10,054 nucleotides of DNA, taken from positions 1-10,054 of the forward strand of contig JBEKDF010000064.1 of the NCBI GenBank assembly GCA_050014495.1. Direction: 5' to 3'. Shown here one piece after another: positions 271 through 10,054 of the stretch. The stretch's first letter is position 1; the number at the start of each line of letters is the position of its first letter. Below the pieces are notes generated by a model. That model searched no databases. It worked only from the letters and a program-made list of their open reading frames with translations, and had not been told where the DNA came from. Position numbers and translations under genes: made by a program. This DNA is from Candidatus Bathyarchaeia archaeon. GTDB taxonomy: Archaea > Thermoproteota > Bathyarchaeia > TCS64.

Positions 271-1104
271 ATGCTTGCCATGGGGAGTGTAGGTATTACT
301 CTTTCAACAGTCGACCCTGTCGGTGCAAACGTCTTCGAAATCTTAAAGGGTCGCGGGTTTGTTGAAGCCCGAGAGGGTATCTACGCAATGAAAGATACAT
401 ATCTGGTCCCAGTGCCGAGGTTCATCGTACCCGAAGATGAGTACAAAATTCCCTCTGAACCAAACCCCTACCCTCTCGACTTCGATGCACTTGCTGTGGA
501 GCTTGGGATCGACTACTTTGTCGTGGCTAGTCGACACTGGTCTAAGAGTGGGCAGCCTAGTCTCACTACTCACGCAACGGGTAACTACGGGAAGGCTGTA
601 TTCGGGGGGCATAACCGTGAGTTGCAGGCAGTGCCCCCGAATGGACTGAGGAATGTCTACCTTGCCATGCTGAGGAATCCTCCTAAGAACTTCCAAGTGA
701 GCCTCGAGGCGACGCACCATAGCCCAACGCAATTTCTTGTCCCCATGTTCTTTGCTGAGGTGGGGAGTAGCCCCATTCAGTGGGCGGATCTAAATGTTTG
801 CGAGTATCTCGTCGACGCCATCTTGGATGGGATAGCTTCAAAGGAAACGGTCCCAACATCGATTGGCTTCGGTGGTGGCCACTACTGCCCGAAGTTCAGT
901 ATCATGGAGAGGGAGCACGCCTTTGGCCACATAGCTGCTAAATATGCCTTTCCCATGCTCACCGACGAGATGATCTCTCAAATGATAACGAAGACGATGG
1001 GTAGCGTAAGTAAGGCGTACATTGAGAGTGGAATGAATAGATCGTATAAGAGAATGTTTGAGGCGGCGCTCAACCGCTTCGGCGTCGAGAGCGAAGTCGT
1101 TTAG
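271..1104 (+). CDS. dtdA: D-aminoacyl-tRNA deacylase, archaeal/plant DTD2 (GEK1) family
   Basis: Family motifs SRHxS...PSLTTHATGN, SLEATHHSP, FAEVGS and IGFGGGHYCPKF...GHI are present, and 277 aa is a typical length. The start could be ATG 271 or ATG 280. Confidence 0.93.
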   Translation: MLAMGSVGITLSTVDPVGANVFEILKGRGFVEAREGIYAMKDTYLVPVPRFIVPEDEYKIPSEPNPYPLDFDALAVELGIDYFVVASRHWSKSGQPSLTTHATGNYGKAVFGGHNRELQAVPPNGLRNVYLAMLRNPPKNFQVSLEATHHSPTQFLVPMFFAEVGSSPIQWADLNVCEYLVDAILDGIASKETVPTSIGFGGGHYCPKFSIMEREHAFGHIAAKYAFPMLTDEMISQMITKTMGSVSKAYIESGMNRSYKRMFEAALNRFGVESEVV

Positions 1105-2363
1105 CGTCGATTACTCAGCACTTTTTTCTCGTATCTTTTAATCTCCGTCATCCATTCGTGATCAGATGGGACACCCTGTTCATCACAGAACTTGTTCCAG
1201 ACGGCTCCAAGGGGGAGCGCCTTCGACTCTTCCAGTAGAGCAAGACGCCGTGTGTAGTCACCAGCTTCCTCGGCCTCAATTAGCATATCATGAGGCTCTA
1301 GTAGAGCGAAGAGTAGTGCCTTCTGGGTGGCCCTCGCCCCGACAACCCATGCGGCTACCCTGTTTATACTCGCATCAAAGTAGTCGAGAGCCAAGTGGAC
1401 CCTATCCAAAGCATCACAGCGTATAACCTCAAGGGCGACATCCCGGAGTTGGTCATCCATGATGGGTACATGGTCGCTATCCCATCTCACACCCCGGCTC
1501 ACGTGCAACATCAACTCAGGCATTTGGATAAGTATGGCGCTCAGTTTGTCCCCTATTGATTCCGTTGGGTGGTAGTGACCCATATCTATGCAGACGATTA
1601 GGCCATGCCTCAGTGCGTAAGCGAGGTAGAAGTCGTGGCTCCCTACAACGAAACACTCGCTACCTAAGCCAAAGAGCTTCGACTCAACTGTGTCCTTTAG
1701 ATGTGCTCCTGGATACTTCTCCGCGTAAATCTCGTCTAGTGACTCAACGAGTATCCTCCTGTAACCAATCTTGTCGACACAGCTGTCCTTCATACCGTCA
1801 GGTATCCAGAGGTCATGTATACAGGGAGTACCTAGACTCTTACCGATATGAGCAGAGACCCTTCTTGTATGCTTTACATGCTCTATCCAAAAGTGGCGGG
1901 TCTCGGGGTCCTTGCTGCTCAGTGTGAACCCAGTGTCTGAGTTGGGGTGAGAGAATAGGGTAGCGTTGAAGTCGAGGCCCAGCCCACACTCCTTTGCCCA
2001 GGACACCCAGCCATCAAAGTGTTCTGGCTCTACTCCGTCCCTGTCGACCCTGCCCTTGAACTCGCCATAGGTGGCGTGGAGGTTGATCCTATGAGGGCCT
2101 GGAATGAGGCTCATCGCCTCTTCTAGGTCACTCCGTAGCTCTGAAGGGCTCCTAGCCTTTCCAGGGTAGTTGCCCGTCGCCATGATTCCACCAGTAAGGA
2201 CGCCACCAGGCCTCTCAAATCCTGCGACATCATCTCCTTGCCAGCATTGGAGAGATATGCTCTTCCCCGCCAGCTTTTTTACAGCCTCTCCTACATTGAC
2301 GCCGAGTTCAGCGTATGTTCCCTCTGCTAGATCATATGCATTCTCCACGTTCAATCTTTCCAC
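1101..2363 (-). CDS. rhaA: L-rhamnose isomerase
   Basis: Motifs CWQGDDVxGFE, ATGNYPGKAR, INLHATY, WIPDG, VESKLFG, DMGHYHP, LHVSRGVRWDSDHV and LDYFDASINR match E. coli-type RhaA, including the metal ligands. The GTG start at 2363 is preceded by AAGGAGA. Confidence 0.97.
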   Translation of the reverse strand: MERLNVENAYDLAEGTYAELGVNVGEAVKKLAGKSISLQCWQGDDVAGFERPGGVLTGGIMATGNYPGKARSPSELRSDLEEAMSLIPGPHRINLHATYGEFKGRVDRDGVEPEHFDGWVSWAKECGLGLDFNATLFSHPNSDTGFTLSSKDPETRHFWIEHVKHTRRVSAHIGKSLGTPCIHDLWIPDGMKDSCVDKIGYRRILVESLDEIYAEKYPGAHLKDTVESKLFGLGSECFVVGSHDFYLAYALRHGLIVCIDMGHYHPTESIGDKLSAILIQMPELMLHVSRGVRWDSDHVPIMDDQLRDVALEVIRCDALDRVHLALDYFDASINRVAAWVVGARATQKALLFALLEPHDMLIEAEEAGDYTRRLALLEESKALPLGAVWNKFCDEQGVPSDHEWMTEIKRYEKKVLSNRR

Positions 2364-3820
2364 ATCTCCTTAAGCTCGATGAATTTAGTATACTGCTCAT
2401 CCCAACCACCAGGGTCACTGGGTTCATACTCCTTTATTTCTGTCGAGTCTCGGACGATCCTCCTAAGCTGGGGAAGATCCTTCACCCTTCCACCAGCCAT
2501 GGCTTGGACAAGTAGATTACCTATTGCGGTTGCCTCAGCTGGACCAGAGTGGACGCTTCTACCGGTTGCGTCAGCGGTGAGTCGGTTTAGGAGCCGATTC
2601 CTTGACCCGCCACCTACTATGTGGATTCTCCTAATTCTATTATCTGATGCCTGCTCAAGTTGTGTAAGTGTATGCCTGTATGCTAGAGCGAGACTCTCAA
2701 GGACGACTCGAGTTGTCTCACCGTGGCTCTGGGGTGGCTCCTGTCCCGACTTCTTACAATAAGTCGCGATTGCCTCTGGCATTGAGGGCGGATTGAGAAA
2801 ACCTGCCCAGTCGGGGTCGATAATCGCCACATGGGGCTCCGATGCTTCAGCGAGGGCGACTAGTTCATCGTAGCTATAACTCCTGTAGCTCTCCCACGCT
2901 CTGCGGCATTCATGAAGAAGCCAGAGTCCCGCAATATTCTTCAGGACCCTGAAAGTGTGGTTTACCCCACCCTCGTTTGTGATATTGTAGCGATTAGATG
3001 CTTTGTTTATGATAGGTTTCTGGGACTCTATTCCCATGAGGGACCAGGTACCTGAACTTATATAGGCGAAGTCATCGGAATCAGCTGGGACGGCTGCGAC
3101 TGCGGAGCCAGTGTCATGGCAGGCGACTGTAGCCACTGATACTTTTCCCAATCCTGTCTTTGCACGTGCATCAGGTGTAAGCTCCCCAAGGATCTTGCCT
3201 GGTTCGATGATCTCCTGAAAAAGTCTTCGGGGGACTTCAAGGGTAGAGATTATCTTCTCATCCCACGCGCCCTCCCACGGGTTGTAGATGTGACTCGTCG
3301 TCGCCAGAGTGAACTCAGACGCTGGCACGCTCGTTAATTGATAGTTGAAGAGGTCAGCCATCATAAGGAGGCGAGAGGCCGAGCGAAGCGACTCAGGCTC
3401 GTCTCTTACAGCAGCGTAAAGCTGAAAGAGGGTATCGAAAGGAAGAATCTGTATCCCTGTGCGCCTATAGAGACTACTAAGTGACATCTTAGCGGCGAAG
3501 CACTCGACTACCCCCTCTGTTCGGGCATCTCGGTAAGCGTATGGAAGCTCCAATAAGCTGCCGTCTCTACTAAGGAGAGCGTAGTCGACACCCCAGGTGT
3601 CGATGCCTATGCTCGTAGGATCCTTTCCACACCTACGCATCCCCATATATATCTCGGCTAGGAGCCTTCCCGAATCCCAGCGAAGGTGACCATCGTCCTC
3701 AACCATCCCATTCGGGAACCTGTGTAACTCCGAGATGACGAGCTTGTCATCATCGCTTAGCTCCCCAAGGATCGCCCTCCCACTTGACGCGCCGAGGTCG
3801 AAGGCCAGATACCTAGACAC
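2351..3820 (-). CDS. rhaB: Rhamnulokinase (FGGY carbohydrate kinase family)
   Basis: Motifs LAFDLGASSGRA, ELHRFPN, SIGIDTWGVDY, YRDxRT, ACHDTGSAV, YISSGTWSLMG, TNEGG, KNIAGLWLL, IVGGGSRN and GPAEATAIGN are present. The gene lies directly upstream of rhaA and starts at GTG. Confidence 0.95.
   Translation of the reverse strand: MSRYLAFDLGASSGRAILGELSDDDKLVISELHRFPNGMVEDDGHLRWDSGRLLAEIYMGMRRCGKDPTSIGIDTWGVDYALLSRDGSLLELPYAYRDARTEGVVECFAAKMSLSSLYRRTGIQILPFDTLFQLYAAVRDEPESLRSASRLLMMADLFNYQLTSVPASEFTLATTSHIYNPWEGAWDEKIISTLEVPRRLFQEIIEPGKILGELTPDARAKTGLGKVSVATVACHDTGSAVAAVPADSDDFAYISSGTWSLMGIESQKPIINKASNRYNITNEGGVNHTFRVLKNIAGLWLLHECRRAWESYRSYSYDELVALAEASEPHVAIIDPDWAGFLNPPSMPEAIATYCKKSGQEPPQSHGETTRVVLESLALAYRHTLTQLEQASDNRIRRIHIVGGGSRNRLLNRLTADATGRSVHSGPAEATAIGNLLVQAMAGGRVKDLPQLRRIVRDSTEIKEYEPSDPGGWDEQYTKFIELKEMWKD
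2365..2371 (-). promoter_or_regulatory. Shine-Dalgarno-like site for rhaA, embedded in the rhaB 3' end
   Basis: The minus strand reads CTT-AAGGAGA-T-GTG. rhaB and rhaA overlap by 13 nt, suggesting translational coupling. The spacing to GTG 2363 is unusually short. Confidence 0.45.
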
Positions 3821-3842
3821 GAATCAAAAACCGCTGGATCAG

Positions 3843-3849
3843 TATTTAA
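3843..3849 (-). promoter_or_regulatory. TATA box of a probably leaderless rhaBA transcript
   Basis: The minus strand has TTAAATA at -29..-23 from the rhaB GTG with no SD sequence in between, which is typical archaeal leaderless geometry. Confidence 0.55.
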
Positions 3850-3855
3850 CGGAAG

Positions 3856-5010
3856 TCACTCGAAAGTCCAGTTGTCTTTCTCTTCCCAGATCTTCTCTAG
3901 GATTTTCTTGGCTTGCCCCGGAGGGAGGCTAAGGAAGAATTTGTCGACGTGTTTACACATCCGCTTTCTATCAGTAGTCTTCTTCCAGTCGTCGCAGTCG
4001 TGGCGCAGTACCTTACCAGTTAGGTCAACTTCGATTGTGTAGTCCTTGATCTTTGCTTTTATGAGATCCTTGGTATTTAGTGTAAATTTCACGTCCTCAG
4101 GCATCTGCTCGGCTCTAGCGAGGCGACCATTATCTGTATAGTGAGTGAGGAGGTCAGCTACACTGAGTCCCTCTTCCTGCTCCCTGTAGGACTCGATAGG
4201 TTGTATATTTCCGGGGCGGAATGCACTACTTCTATGCCCTTTAATCTTGGAGAGTGCTGCTTCCTGCTCTGAAGAAGCTCCTCCCATACTCTGAAGGAGC
4301 TCAACTGCATTCTTCACCGCGCTCGCGTTGAAGTGATTGTTAAAGTAACCATAGGTCCTCTTAGCCTTCTTGGAGACTTCTTCGACTTTGGGCTTCCATT
4401 CCTCAAGTTGCTGCTTTGTGTAATCGTAGTCGTACCAGATGCGTTTGCCTTGACCATGCCAACGGATGTAAGCGAAGTCCGCTGTTACATGGGTCTCCGG
4501 AGGAAGAAGAGGCTCGTCGACTATCGTGTAGGCCACATTGTGTTTCTCAAGCATCTTATAGGTCTCATTCCTTAGCCAGCTGTCGTGTCGGAACTCTATG
4601 GCCCACTCGTGGTTCTTGGGTAGTATCTCTAAGAACTTCTCAAGGTCTGCAGCGTTCTCTTTGTATGTGAACATAGGACGGAGCTGAATTAGGATGGGGC
4701 CGAGCTTCTCGGCGAGAGGTTGCATAATATGGATGAACCTCCACATATCATCTTCGACCCCCTCGCTTAGCTTAAGCCACTTGTCATGAGTTATAAGTTG
4801 GGGGAGCTTTGCAGCGAATACGAAGCCAGGTGGTGCAGTGTGAGTCCAACCCTCGACGAGGCGCTCAGTTGGGTAGCTATAGAATGTACTGTTAATCTCC
4901 GTAGTCCTGAAAACTTTAGTATAGTTTGTGAACATACCCTGCTTCTTATCGTAGAATGGGCCTATCCATTCGTCGTAGCTCCACCCTGAAGTACCGATTA
5001 GGAGGCTCAT
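3856..5010 (-). CDS. DUF72 (UPF0759/YecE-like) TIM-barrel protein with a C-terminal SWIM-like zinc-finger extension
   Basis: The N-terminal ~245 aa carry the DUF72 signatures IGTSGWSY, EINSTFY, KLPQxITH, QL(R)P, EFRHxSW, YIRWHG and YFNNH. The C-terminus has YTIEVD...H337-D-C339-x12-C352-K-H354. A GGTGA SD lies 4 nt before the ATG. Confidence 0.88.
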   Translation of the reverse strand: MSLLIGTSGWSYDEWIGPFYDKKQGMFTNYTKVFRTTEINSTFYSYPTERLVEGWTHTAPPGFVFAAKLPQLITHDKWLKLSEGVEDDMWRFIHIMQPLAEKLGPILIQLRPMFTYKENAADLEKFLEILPKNHEWAIEFRHDSWLRNETYKMLEKHNVAYTIVDEPLLPPETHVTADFAYIRWHGQGKRIWYDYDYTKQQLEEWKPKVEEVSKKAKRTYGYFNNHFNASAVKNAVELLQSMGGASSEQEAALSKIKGHRSSAFRPGNIQPIESYREQEEGLSVADLLTHYTDNGRLARAEQMPEDVKFTLNTKDLIKAKIKDYTIEVDLTGKVLRHDCDDWKKTTDRKRMCKHVDKFFLSLPPGQAKKILEKIWEEKDNWTFE

Positions 5011-8339: not shown

Positions 8340-9317
8340 TTACTTTATGTAATCGTCGAACTTCCAGTAGTGCTCCTCTTCCTGGATCACGATGTCCTCG
8401 AACATTCGCCTAGTCAGAGTATCCCCACGCTTCATGGCCTCCTCAATTATCTTCCTGTAAAGGACAATAGCGTCGTTCTCAGCCGCGTGGTCGAGCATAA
8501 GGAAGTCGTCAGCGGTATCACCCACCTTGGGAAGTGGGTCGGGTAGGACAGTCGCCTCGCCCTCCAGGAGGTAGATCCTCTCAGATATCTTCTCCAGGTG
8601 ATCCATCTCCTGCATGAAGATGGGCTTTAGGAGCTCACTTACAGCTTTTGTCTTGTTCTTCTCCGTAATTATCTCGAGGGCTGTTTCCTTCATGCGTAGG
8701 CTAAGCAGAGCTGCCTTCTCATGCTGGTTTGTATACTGGATAATGGCCATGATCTCGCTTGCAACAGCCTTGTTTAAGAGGGCAAAGTAGTCTTCAGTGA
8801 AGACTTTTCTCCACTCGGAGGGTTTTCCAGTCTCTTCCTGGGGTTCGTCCCTAATTTTGATGTACTCTTGGAACTTGAAGAGGTGCACCTCCTCTTCCCC
8901 GTAGATCTTCTCGAAGAGTTCGTGGGTCTCGTAGTCCCCTGCCTTCCTTGCCTCGTCTATAATCGTTCTATATAGTATGAGTGCCTCCTCCTCGGCTTTG
9001 ACCCCGAGTTTGGCGAACTCACTAAGGGAGTCCCCGACGACGGGTTTCTTCGACTTAGTCGTCGCCAAGCCACCAAGGTAGTATATCCTCTCTATGATCG
9101 AGGCAGCATGCTTCATCTCCTGTATGCCGATCTCCCTCAGGAACTTACCTACGGCGTCGTACGTCGTCTTGTCGAGGAGGATGTTCTCGGGGAGTTTTTT
9201 CATGATGAGTTTCTCCATCTTACCATGTTGAAGCAGGTACTGGATAGAGACCTGAATCTCCCTAGCTACTGCTTCGTTAAGAAGATCGATATACTCGGGT
9301 GTAGTCTTGACAGCCAT
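8340..9317 (-). CDS. Tandem two-domain bacterioferritin/ferritin-like di-iron protein
   Basis: Two homologous ~150-aa repeats each follow LLNxAVAxE..IQY..QH...QEMxH...I.ERIY.L.G...AE..A..LYR.II.EA...GD..T...FE.I...EExH..KF..Y. The ligands are E20/E67/H70/E109/E142/H145 and E188/E237/H240/E280/E313/H316. Confidence 0.9.
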   Translation of the reverse strand: MAVKTTPEYIDLLNEAVAREIQVSIQYLLQHGKMEKLIMKKLPENILLDKTTYDAVGKFLREIGIQEMKHAASIIERIYYLGGLATTKSKKPVVGDSLSEFAKLGVKAEEEALILYRTIIDEARKAGDYETHELFEKIYGEEEVHLFKFQEYIKIRDEPQEETGKPSEWRKVFTEDYFALLNKAVASEIMAIIQYTNQHEKAALLSLRMKETALEIITEKNKTKAVSELLKPIFMQEMDHLEKISERIYLLEGEATVLPDPLPKVGDTADDFLMLDHAAENDAIVLYRKIIEEAMKRGDTLTRRMFEDIVIQEEEHYWKFDDYIK

Positions 9318-9355
9318 TCTTCACAACCTTCTGAATGAGTTTCTGGTATCAAAGG

Positions 9356-9394
9356 ATATTAAGGATTCGTAGGAAATATTAACGGATTTAATAT
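9356..9394. promoter_or_regulatory. Promoter/operator region of the ferritin-like gene, with ATATTAA direct and inverted repeats
   Basis: ATATTAA occurs at 9356-9362 and 9376-9382 (20 nt apart), and its complement TTAATAT at 9388-9394 forms a perfect 7-5-7 palindrome with the second copy. Confidence 0.45.
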
Positions 9395-9421: not shown

Positions 9422-10054
9422 TTAGTTTTTGATGAGGCCCAGAATCTTCCTCGCTTCATCGGGTTTTGCTACTTCGATGTTTAGTGCCTCCGCAATTGTA
9501 ACGATCCTCTTCACAAGGTCCGCGTTGCTCTTCGCGAGCTCCCCATGCCGGATGTAGATATTGTCCTCGAAACCCACGCGAACATGTCCACCAAGTGTCA
9601 TCGCGAAAGCTCCCATCGGTAGCTGAGTCCTACCTAAGGAACAGACACTCCATGTCCAGTTTGGGCTTATTTGCTCTACGCCGTAGAGAAGCGTCTTGGG
9701 TGTCGGCGACCAACCCGTAGTCCCGACCATAACAAACTGGACATGCAAAGGCTCACGCAGCACACCGTCCTTGACCAGCATCTTCGTCGCATTGATCATG
9801 CCAGTATCATAGAACTCAAGCTCCGGTCTGATCCCCGCCTCATGCATGTAGCCAACCCACCTTTTAATAGTCGGTATCTCATTCATGAAGACGTTCTCGT
9901 AGGGAGGCGTCCAGAGGTTGATGGTCCCCATATTGAGACTCATCATCTCTGCGCCAAGGGTACACCTCTCCTTAACCATCTCGTCAAGCTTTGACCCTGA
10001 TGTGGGACGTGCCCCCCCCCCCCGTTGTCATATTAATCACAATGTCGCAACGAT
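9422..10054 (-). CDS. Beta-keto acid cleavage enzyme (BKACE/Kce, DUF849; 3-keto-5-aminohexanoate cleavage-like), 5'-truncated by the window edge and frameshifted at G12
   Basis: Motifs EMMSLNMGTIN, PELEFYD, GGHVRVGFEDN, SNADLV and A.PDEARKILGL are present. The upstream family motif RCDIVINMTTGG is encoded at 10052-10017 in a different frame. The listed ATG 9979 is not the true start. Confidence 0.88.
10012..10023. repeat. C12 (G12 on the coding strand) homopolymer tract
   Basis: Twelve consecutive C residues on the plus strand, the longest homopolymer noticed in the window. Confidence 0.95.

Follow-up and report, generated by a model that had tools for sequence, protein, structure and literature searches.

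A bathyarchaeial member of the two-domain dFTN ferritin family with a predicted bis-Met heme site

The gene, its locus and the host genome

The window, meaning the whole 10,054-nt stretch of DNA analyzed, is a complete contig of a 3.1-Mb Candidatus Bathyarchaeia genome. Its completeness is 95.95% and its contamination 7.5%, so the absence of one gene from it is no proof. The window contains the dFTN gene at 8340..9317 (-), a 325-aa ORF with two ferritin domains within one chain (Table 1). No further Bfr-like gene was found in the host, where the other match to the Ferritin HMM is a rubrerythrin. Its neighbors are rhamnose, CoA-transferase, luciferase-like and BKACE genes. They are unrelated to dFTN, and a conserved iron operon was rejected for this locus.

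A likely archaeal BRE/TATA promoter precedes the start. In the 18 of 81 upstream regions that were inspected by eye, related loci have a similar AT-rich box at a comparable distance. No conserved operator palindrome was found upstream, and the best candidate was an A/T-run pair in 6/81 upstream regions.

The rhamnose genes encode a bacterial-type L-rhamnose isomerase, above the NCBIfam cut-off, and a rhamnulokinase-like protein, here in an archaeon. The BKACE gene (kce-like) is truncated at the end of the contig; contig C10 matches its N-terminal part, and an assembly break is probable. Elsewhere in the host genome, a 100-aa ORF of near-pure PNP/PDP/PTP repeats (L101:2676-2978 (+)) lies about 2 kb from the rubrerythrin gene.

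Table 1. Positions of features in the window
Feature	Position	Strand	Details
N-terminal ferritin domain, aa 6-155	8853..9302	(-)	di-iron ligands E20, E67, H70, E109, E142, H145; Y27; M68 at heme position
Linker, aa 156-174	8796..8852	(-)	predicted ordered; 167-169 contact neighboring chain in trimer model
C-terminal ferritin domain, aa 175-325	8343..8795	(-)	di-iron ligands E188, E237, H240, E280, E313, H316; Y195; M238 at heme position
Inserted short helix, N-domain, aa 43-47	9177..9191	(-)	model; dFTN pseudo-four-fold element; same residues in preprint
Inserted short helix, C-domain, aa 213-218	8664..8681	(-)	model; preprint has 213-219
Met68 codon, predicted axial heme ligand	9114..9116	(-)	alignment and dFTN preprint
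Met238 codon, predicted axial heme ligand	8604..8606	(-)	alignment and dFTN preprint
Likely archaeal BRE/TATA promoter	9354..9369	(-)	about 40 nt ahead of start
L-rhamnose isomerase and rhamnulokinase-like genes	1101-3820	(-)
BKACE (kce-like) gene	9422-10054	(-)	frame change at 12-C run, about 10012-10023

Across 80 GTDB loci, the commonest neighbor of dFTN is a 2-oxoacid:ferredoxin oxidoreductase (alpha/beta), found at 39/80 loci and not at the window locus. Thirty of these 39 genes begin 85-411 nt downstream of dFTN. The genomes are kin, so the adjacency may be plain synteny; it is also possible that the enzyme is a source of reduced ferredoxin. NrdR/NrdD genes lie close to dFTN in 19 of these loci (L001-L080).

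The Pfam Ferritin profile hits two stretches of the 325-aa protein (E 1.8e-36). The N and C halves align with 69/152 identities (45%; E 2e-37), and their global score is 276 against a maximum of 59 among 500 shuffles. The two iron sites had been suggested to be non-equivalent; their first-shell ligands are the same. The 16 ligand, Tyr and Met positions are invariant in 148/148 aligned homologues of 48-92% identity, picked from about 240 near-full-length matches. Among 200 close sequences, 80 of them from a motif-seeded scan, 199-200 retain these positions. The preliminary description had claimed two diverged four-helix repeats joined by a charged linker, with all six di-iron ligands, the Tyr and the Met kept in both. 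It was right on each point, and the linker spans about aa 156-174.

An insertion absent from that description lies between the first two ligand helices, with 14 residues in the N-domain and 16 in the C-domain. The Glu-to-Glu spacing is 47 (N) and 49 (C), versus 33 in 17/19 single-domain bathyarchaeial relatives. The remaining two have a longer insertion, unrelated to the dFTN one. Across the 148 homologues, the spacing is 47 in every N-domain and 49-50 in the C-domains.

The dFTN family and the predicted assembly

The family, its cage and the M68/M238 site are already in print (August 2026). Remeeva et al. report 24 such proteins in Asgard and TACK archaea (bioRxiv 10.64898/2026.08.25.747088). 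Their 2.4 A cryo-EM structure of Hend-dFTN (A0A9Y1BS62; PDB 26ZY) is a tetrahedral 24-domain shell of 12 chains with an ordered linker. Its E helix is relocated and occupies residues 43-47 and 213-219. The two di-iron sites are intact, and M68 stands opposite M238 across an intramolecular N/C pseudo-two-fold. Heme was not observed in Hend-dFTN made in E. coli, and no ferroxidase assay is reported in the preprint text. The fused chain had been proposed earlier, from the present DNA, to encode a Bfr dimer with an intramolecular bis-Met site and to build a cage from half the usual number of chains. Both features are now reported for this homologue, which has the same M68/M238 numbering.

By sequence and model, the 325-aa bathyarchaeial protein belongs to the dFTN family. 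Its two domains stem from a single duplication, as judged from the trees below. In each domain a short helix lies between helices 1 and 3, and the C-terminus has none. The di-iron sites (4 Glu, 2 His) are complete, and Met68/Met238 are present. Its closest single-domain kin are mini-Bfrs, and its host falls within the Asgard or TACK archaea. Hend-dFTN was compared through the 15 residues whose numbers are printed in the preprint. Eight are identical here at the same number (M68, M238, E44, L48, L214, R117, K125 and E307) and three are conservative changes (R303, R304 and D308). The other four are pore residues that differ, with D121, H132, E136 and M295 here versus R, K, R and T. PDB 26ZY was absent from the matches of our sequence search and of our fold searches, whose library ends in April 2026.

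The N-domain three-fold thus carries H/E at 132/136, versus the basic K132/R136 pore of Hend-dFTN. In 46 close rows of the alignment, position 132 is R or H in 46/46 and position 136 is E in 44/46. In the 102 distant rows, these positions are mostly W plus S/T. Three residues of the C-domain pore are kept (D299 in 148/148, E307 in 147/148, K/R303 in 147/148). Because the N-domain pore varies by lineage and these residues are kept, the C-domain pore is the likelier conserved iron entry.

In the tree, N- and C-domains form separate clades (99/98 and 100/99) on a common stem (100/99), apart from the single mini-Bfr-like proteins. Mean N/C identity across the aligned family is 39.3% (39.7% in the preprint). 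One query returned 1,656 clusters of 179-573 aa at E up to 1e-60, fragments included. The family is therefore much larger than the 24 proteins of the preprint. In an even sample of the class, 25/151 Bathyarchaeia genomes encode dFTN; 23 copies are full and two are truncated by a contig end, one of which seems to be frameshifted as well. Outside Bathyarchaeia, it is also present in one genome of a different Thermoproteota class. The nearest GTDB loci are titled Bathyarchaeia, Bathyarchaeota or Bathyarchaeales in 79/80 cases. Farther full-length homologues carry the names Loki/Promethe-, Thor- and Hodarchaeota. Frameshift-broken copies (L127:1812-2719, L122 and L083) may be pseudogenes or sequencing errors.

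The AlphaFold2 monomer model is confident (pLDDT 95, pTM 0.92). Its short helices fall at 43-47 and 213-218, while a helix at 300-324 ends the chain. The linker is predicted to be ordered (pLDDT 78-96), with a short helix at 168-172. The best fold matches are the mini-Bfr entries 9QQ5/9QQ4 (Z 21.3/21.0, rmsd 1.4/1.5, 136 aligned), and 2QQY and 8W1D lie within about 1 Z of them.

The three-copy model scores 0.80 versus 0.00 for the best of three controls (pLDDT 86), and three runs share at least 75% of contacts. The mark for this score was reached by 20/30 solved pairs and 1/23 single chains, counts that apply only roughly here. The interface involves residues 295-311 (including 295, 300, 304 and 307) and linker residues 167-169. 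The model supports a match to the published C-domain three-fold of dFTN. The score could also stem from likeness to solved ferritin cages.

A DFLP-type ferroxidase would be a dimer outside any cage, possibly an encapsulin cargo. DFLPs likewise combine two ferritin domains with an interdomain bis-Met site, according to the available text of their preprint (bioRxiv 10.1101/2025.09.13.676036). The protein matches PDB 9VIW (306 aa, two stretches; E 2.4e-8), which we infer to be a DFLP structure. We consider it very improbable that the protein here is of the DFLP type. The targeting motif is absent from the last 25 aa in 148/148 homologues, and no encapsulin was found in the host genome. The Glu spacing of 47/49 differs from the 30 in TmDFLP (E17-E47) given in that text (bioRxiv 10.1101/2025.09.13.676036). 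DFLP-like proteins fall on a far branch of the tree, and the trimer model has a three-fold-type interface. A DFLP identity is disfavored by the insertion, the distant branch and the missing targeting peptide.

Heme supply and proposed function

HemA, HemB, HemC, AhbAB and ChdC were not found in the host genome, and AhbD was not above the cut-off. The genome also yielded no cytochrome c assembly genes and no Bfd. It encodes a heme catalase. In the host genus, dFTN is present in 12/17 genomes and HemC in 0/17. Heme catalase or KatG is present in 9/17 (catalase in 5, one of them in pieces; KatG in 6). HemB occurs in 12 of the 25 dFTN-bearing class genomes, and AhbAB above the cut-off in 5. These are related draft genomes, so the genus and class counts are not independent. 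Without detected tetrapyrrole synthesis, and with heme catalase or KatG present, any bound heme is likely scavenged. These gene contents fit a host genus that is likely heme-auxotrophic and would scavenge heme. Such auxotrophy with scavenging has been inferred for other archaea, in the available text of one study (PMC8351635). The heme supply of the genus in relation to dFTN is not in the main text of the dFTN preprint and is new here.

A mini-Bfr grips coproheme by Arg13 and Tyr28, according to the available text of its description (PMC13168243). These residues align with V17/G32 and V185/E200 here. Arg at 17 or 185 is not listed in any of the 148 rows. The replacements make heme b, or nothing, likelier than coproheme. 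A scavenged cofactor would thus probably be heme b rather than coproheme. For this genus, the cofactor question raised by the dFTN preprint thus gains a constraint, with scavenged heme b or an empty site as the likelier options.

Bacterioferritins oxidize Fe(II), store it as a mineral and release it reductively with the help of heme. We consider it highly likely, on the whole, that the dFTN protein is a 12-chain iron-storage shell with a predicted bis-Met heme site and with heme that is likely scavenged. The two domains of each chain would pack like a bacterioferritin dimer, with M68 and M238 predicted to bind one heme. Twelve chains would assemble into the tetrahedral 24-domain shell, as the homologue structure and the model suggest. 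The inserted short helices would plug the pores at the pseudo-four-folds, and iron would more likely enter by the C-domain pore. Fe(II) would be oxidized at both di-iron sites and kept as ferric mineral, as in bacterioferritin biochemistry. By analogy with Bfr, heme would aid the reduction and release of the stored iron. Since no Bfd was found in the host, another ferredoxin likely donates the electrons.

The same cage could also work with an empty site, the Met pair being kept for packing or redox. We regard this as rather unlikely. It fits the heme-free Hend-dFTN, the counts of HemC versus dFTN in the genus, the few dFTN-bearing Bathyarchaeia with AhbAB above the cut-off (5/25) and the Bfd not found in the host. 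Against it, both Met residues are invariant (148/148), and the catalase or KatG genes of the genus suggest that heme likely reaches the cells. DFLPs made in E. coli bound 3-8% heme, according to the available preprint text, so low loading is expected there (bioRxiv 10.1101/2025.09.13.676036).

Unfused two-gene relatives and comparison with known ferritins

A metagenome locus, reached through the distant match P0132, contains adjacent single-domain genes A (154 aa) and B (157 aa) at L110:2946-3410 and 3429-3902 (+). The 18-nt gap between them holds a ribosome-binding-like sequence. The pair lies close to peroxiredoxin, Fur-family, ArsR and VIT genes. A-type proteins make up 22 full-length sequences among 53 matches (P0402-P0418, P0420-P0423, P0438). 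They are 152-160 aa long, with 67-100% identity and a common end point, and the ligands, Met and insertion are retained in 22/22. The named ones belong to Ca. Helarchaeota (6), Lokiarchaeota (1) and 'Deferrimicrobium' (1). The B type comprises two proteins, with DNA context from one pair. B proteins begin like N-domains, without the linker.

The peroxiredoxin, Fur-family and VIT genes beside this unfused relative bear on another reading, in which peroxide detoxification of the DpsL or mini-Bfr kind is the main role and iron storage is secondary. The nearest folds, which include mini-Bfr and the Dps-like PA4880, would also suit it. This reading is improbable in our judgment. Catalase and rubrerythrin are encoded separately in the host, the 24-domain shell is the storage architecture, and no oxidative-stress genes recur near the fused gene across the 80 loci. 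We retain iron storage as the main role.

The A/B trees leave out Heimdallarchaeia. When the tree is rooted on mini-Bfr-like singles, the A proteins form the sister group of the 15 fused N-domains, with weak support (93/71), and the B proteins that of the 15 fused C-domains (100/95). The fused groups have 100/98 and 100/99, and a second tree shows similar placement of A and B. The AU test rejects B with distant, Asgard-type C-domains (p 0.005). Grouping A with distant N-domains (p 0.025) or with B (p 0.033) is rejected as well, although these two values are marginal, as the groups were named after seeing the trees and three tests were run. The sister positions, and the lack of a linker in B, favor duplication followed by fusion, with the two-gene stage surviving. 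The sequences thus suggest that the A/B pair is a surviving pre-fusion stage. Its fit to the species tree would need transfer or differential loss, and the pair may instead have arisen by fission followed by gene conversion.

In the main text of the preprint, all dFTNs have two domains except two deemed assembly-truncated (bioRxiv 10.64898/2026.08.25.747088). No description of an unfused A/B pair was found in that main text or in the literature searched, which covers few subscription papers. We tentatively propose a joint history that is possible, though more doubtful than probable as a set. Duplication would have given a two-gene hetero-bacterioferritin with the relocated helix, followed by fusion. 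The unfused stage would persist in Helarchaeales, with A and B forming an obligate hetero-24-mer. The fused cage of heme-auxotrophic Bathyarchaeia would bind scavenged heme and double as a heme buffer. The A/B pair offers a direct test of a 24-domain cage re-evolving from 12-mer mini-bacterioferritins.

Among known ferritins, the mini-Bfr Mper-mBfr (PDB 9QQ4) is the best sequence match (E 9.6e-14) and among the top fold matches. It shares the ferroxidase ligands, the bis-Met site and the lack of a C-terminal E helix, according to its available description (PMC13168243). Unlike the protein here, it is described there as a single domain without the insertion, in a 12-domain cage (PMC13168243). 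A mini-bacterioferritin identity, meaning a single domain of about 140 aa without an insertion, was rejected.

Other mini-Bfr-like proteins were also seen. P0155 (291 aa) is another, independent doubling of such a domain, with no insertion and no encapsulin tail. Its halves both nest among the single mini-Bfr-like proteins, and the tests made place it in neither dFTN nor DFLP. L126:2551-2964 and 2983-3408 (+) are tandem single-domain genes, possibly for a hetero-mini-Bfr. L081:1680-2165 (-), L082:3954-4406 (+), P0163, P0164 and P0174 are single domains with a longer, different insertion. This group has a spacing of 54, an 'SH..FF.PG' segment and its own clade (99/89), and two members are in dFTN-bearing genomes. 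L081 and L082 (same genus) were rejected as a pre-duplication form, as their insertion differs and their branch lies outside the dFTN clade.

DFLPs (TmDFLP and CaDFLP) resemble dFTN in their tandem ferritin domains, Bfr-dimer geometry and intramolecular bis-Met heme site, according to the available preprint text. They differ in their independent duplication, their dimers in place of shells, their disordered linker and their lack of the insertion. Their C-domain site is often degenerate, and 56/157 have an encapsulin-targeting tail (bioRxiv 10.1101/2025.09.13.676036).

Classical Bfr (E. coli Bfr; TIGR00754) shares the ligand set, Tyr and Met, and the 24-domain shell predicted here. It differs in having 24 separate chains, a C-terminal E helix and a Bfd partner. 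A classical identity was rejected, as the protein scores 65 bits against the TIGR00754 cut-off of 125.55 and the E helix is missing in the model.

The published dFTNs are the closest system. Unlike that of Hend-dFTN, the host here is without detected tetrapyrrole synthesis. The protein shares with dFTNs two domains in about 325 aa, intact di-iron sites, M68/M238, E44/L48/L214 and about 40% N/C identity. It also shares the inserted short helices at 43-47 and 213-218/219, the ordered linker, mini-Bfr as nearest single-domain kin and the host group Bathyarchaeia.
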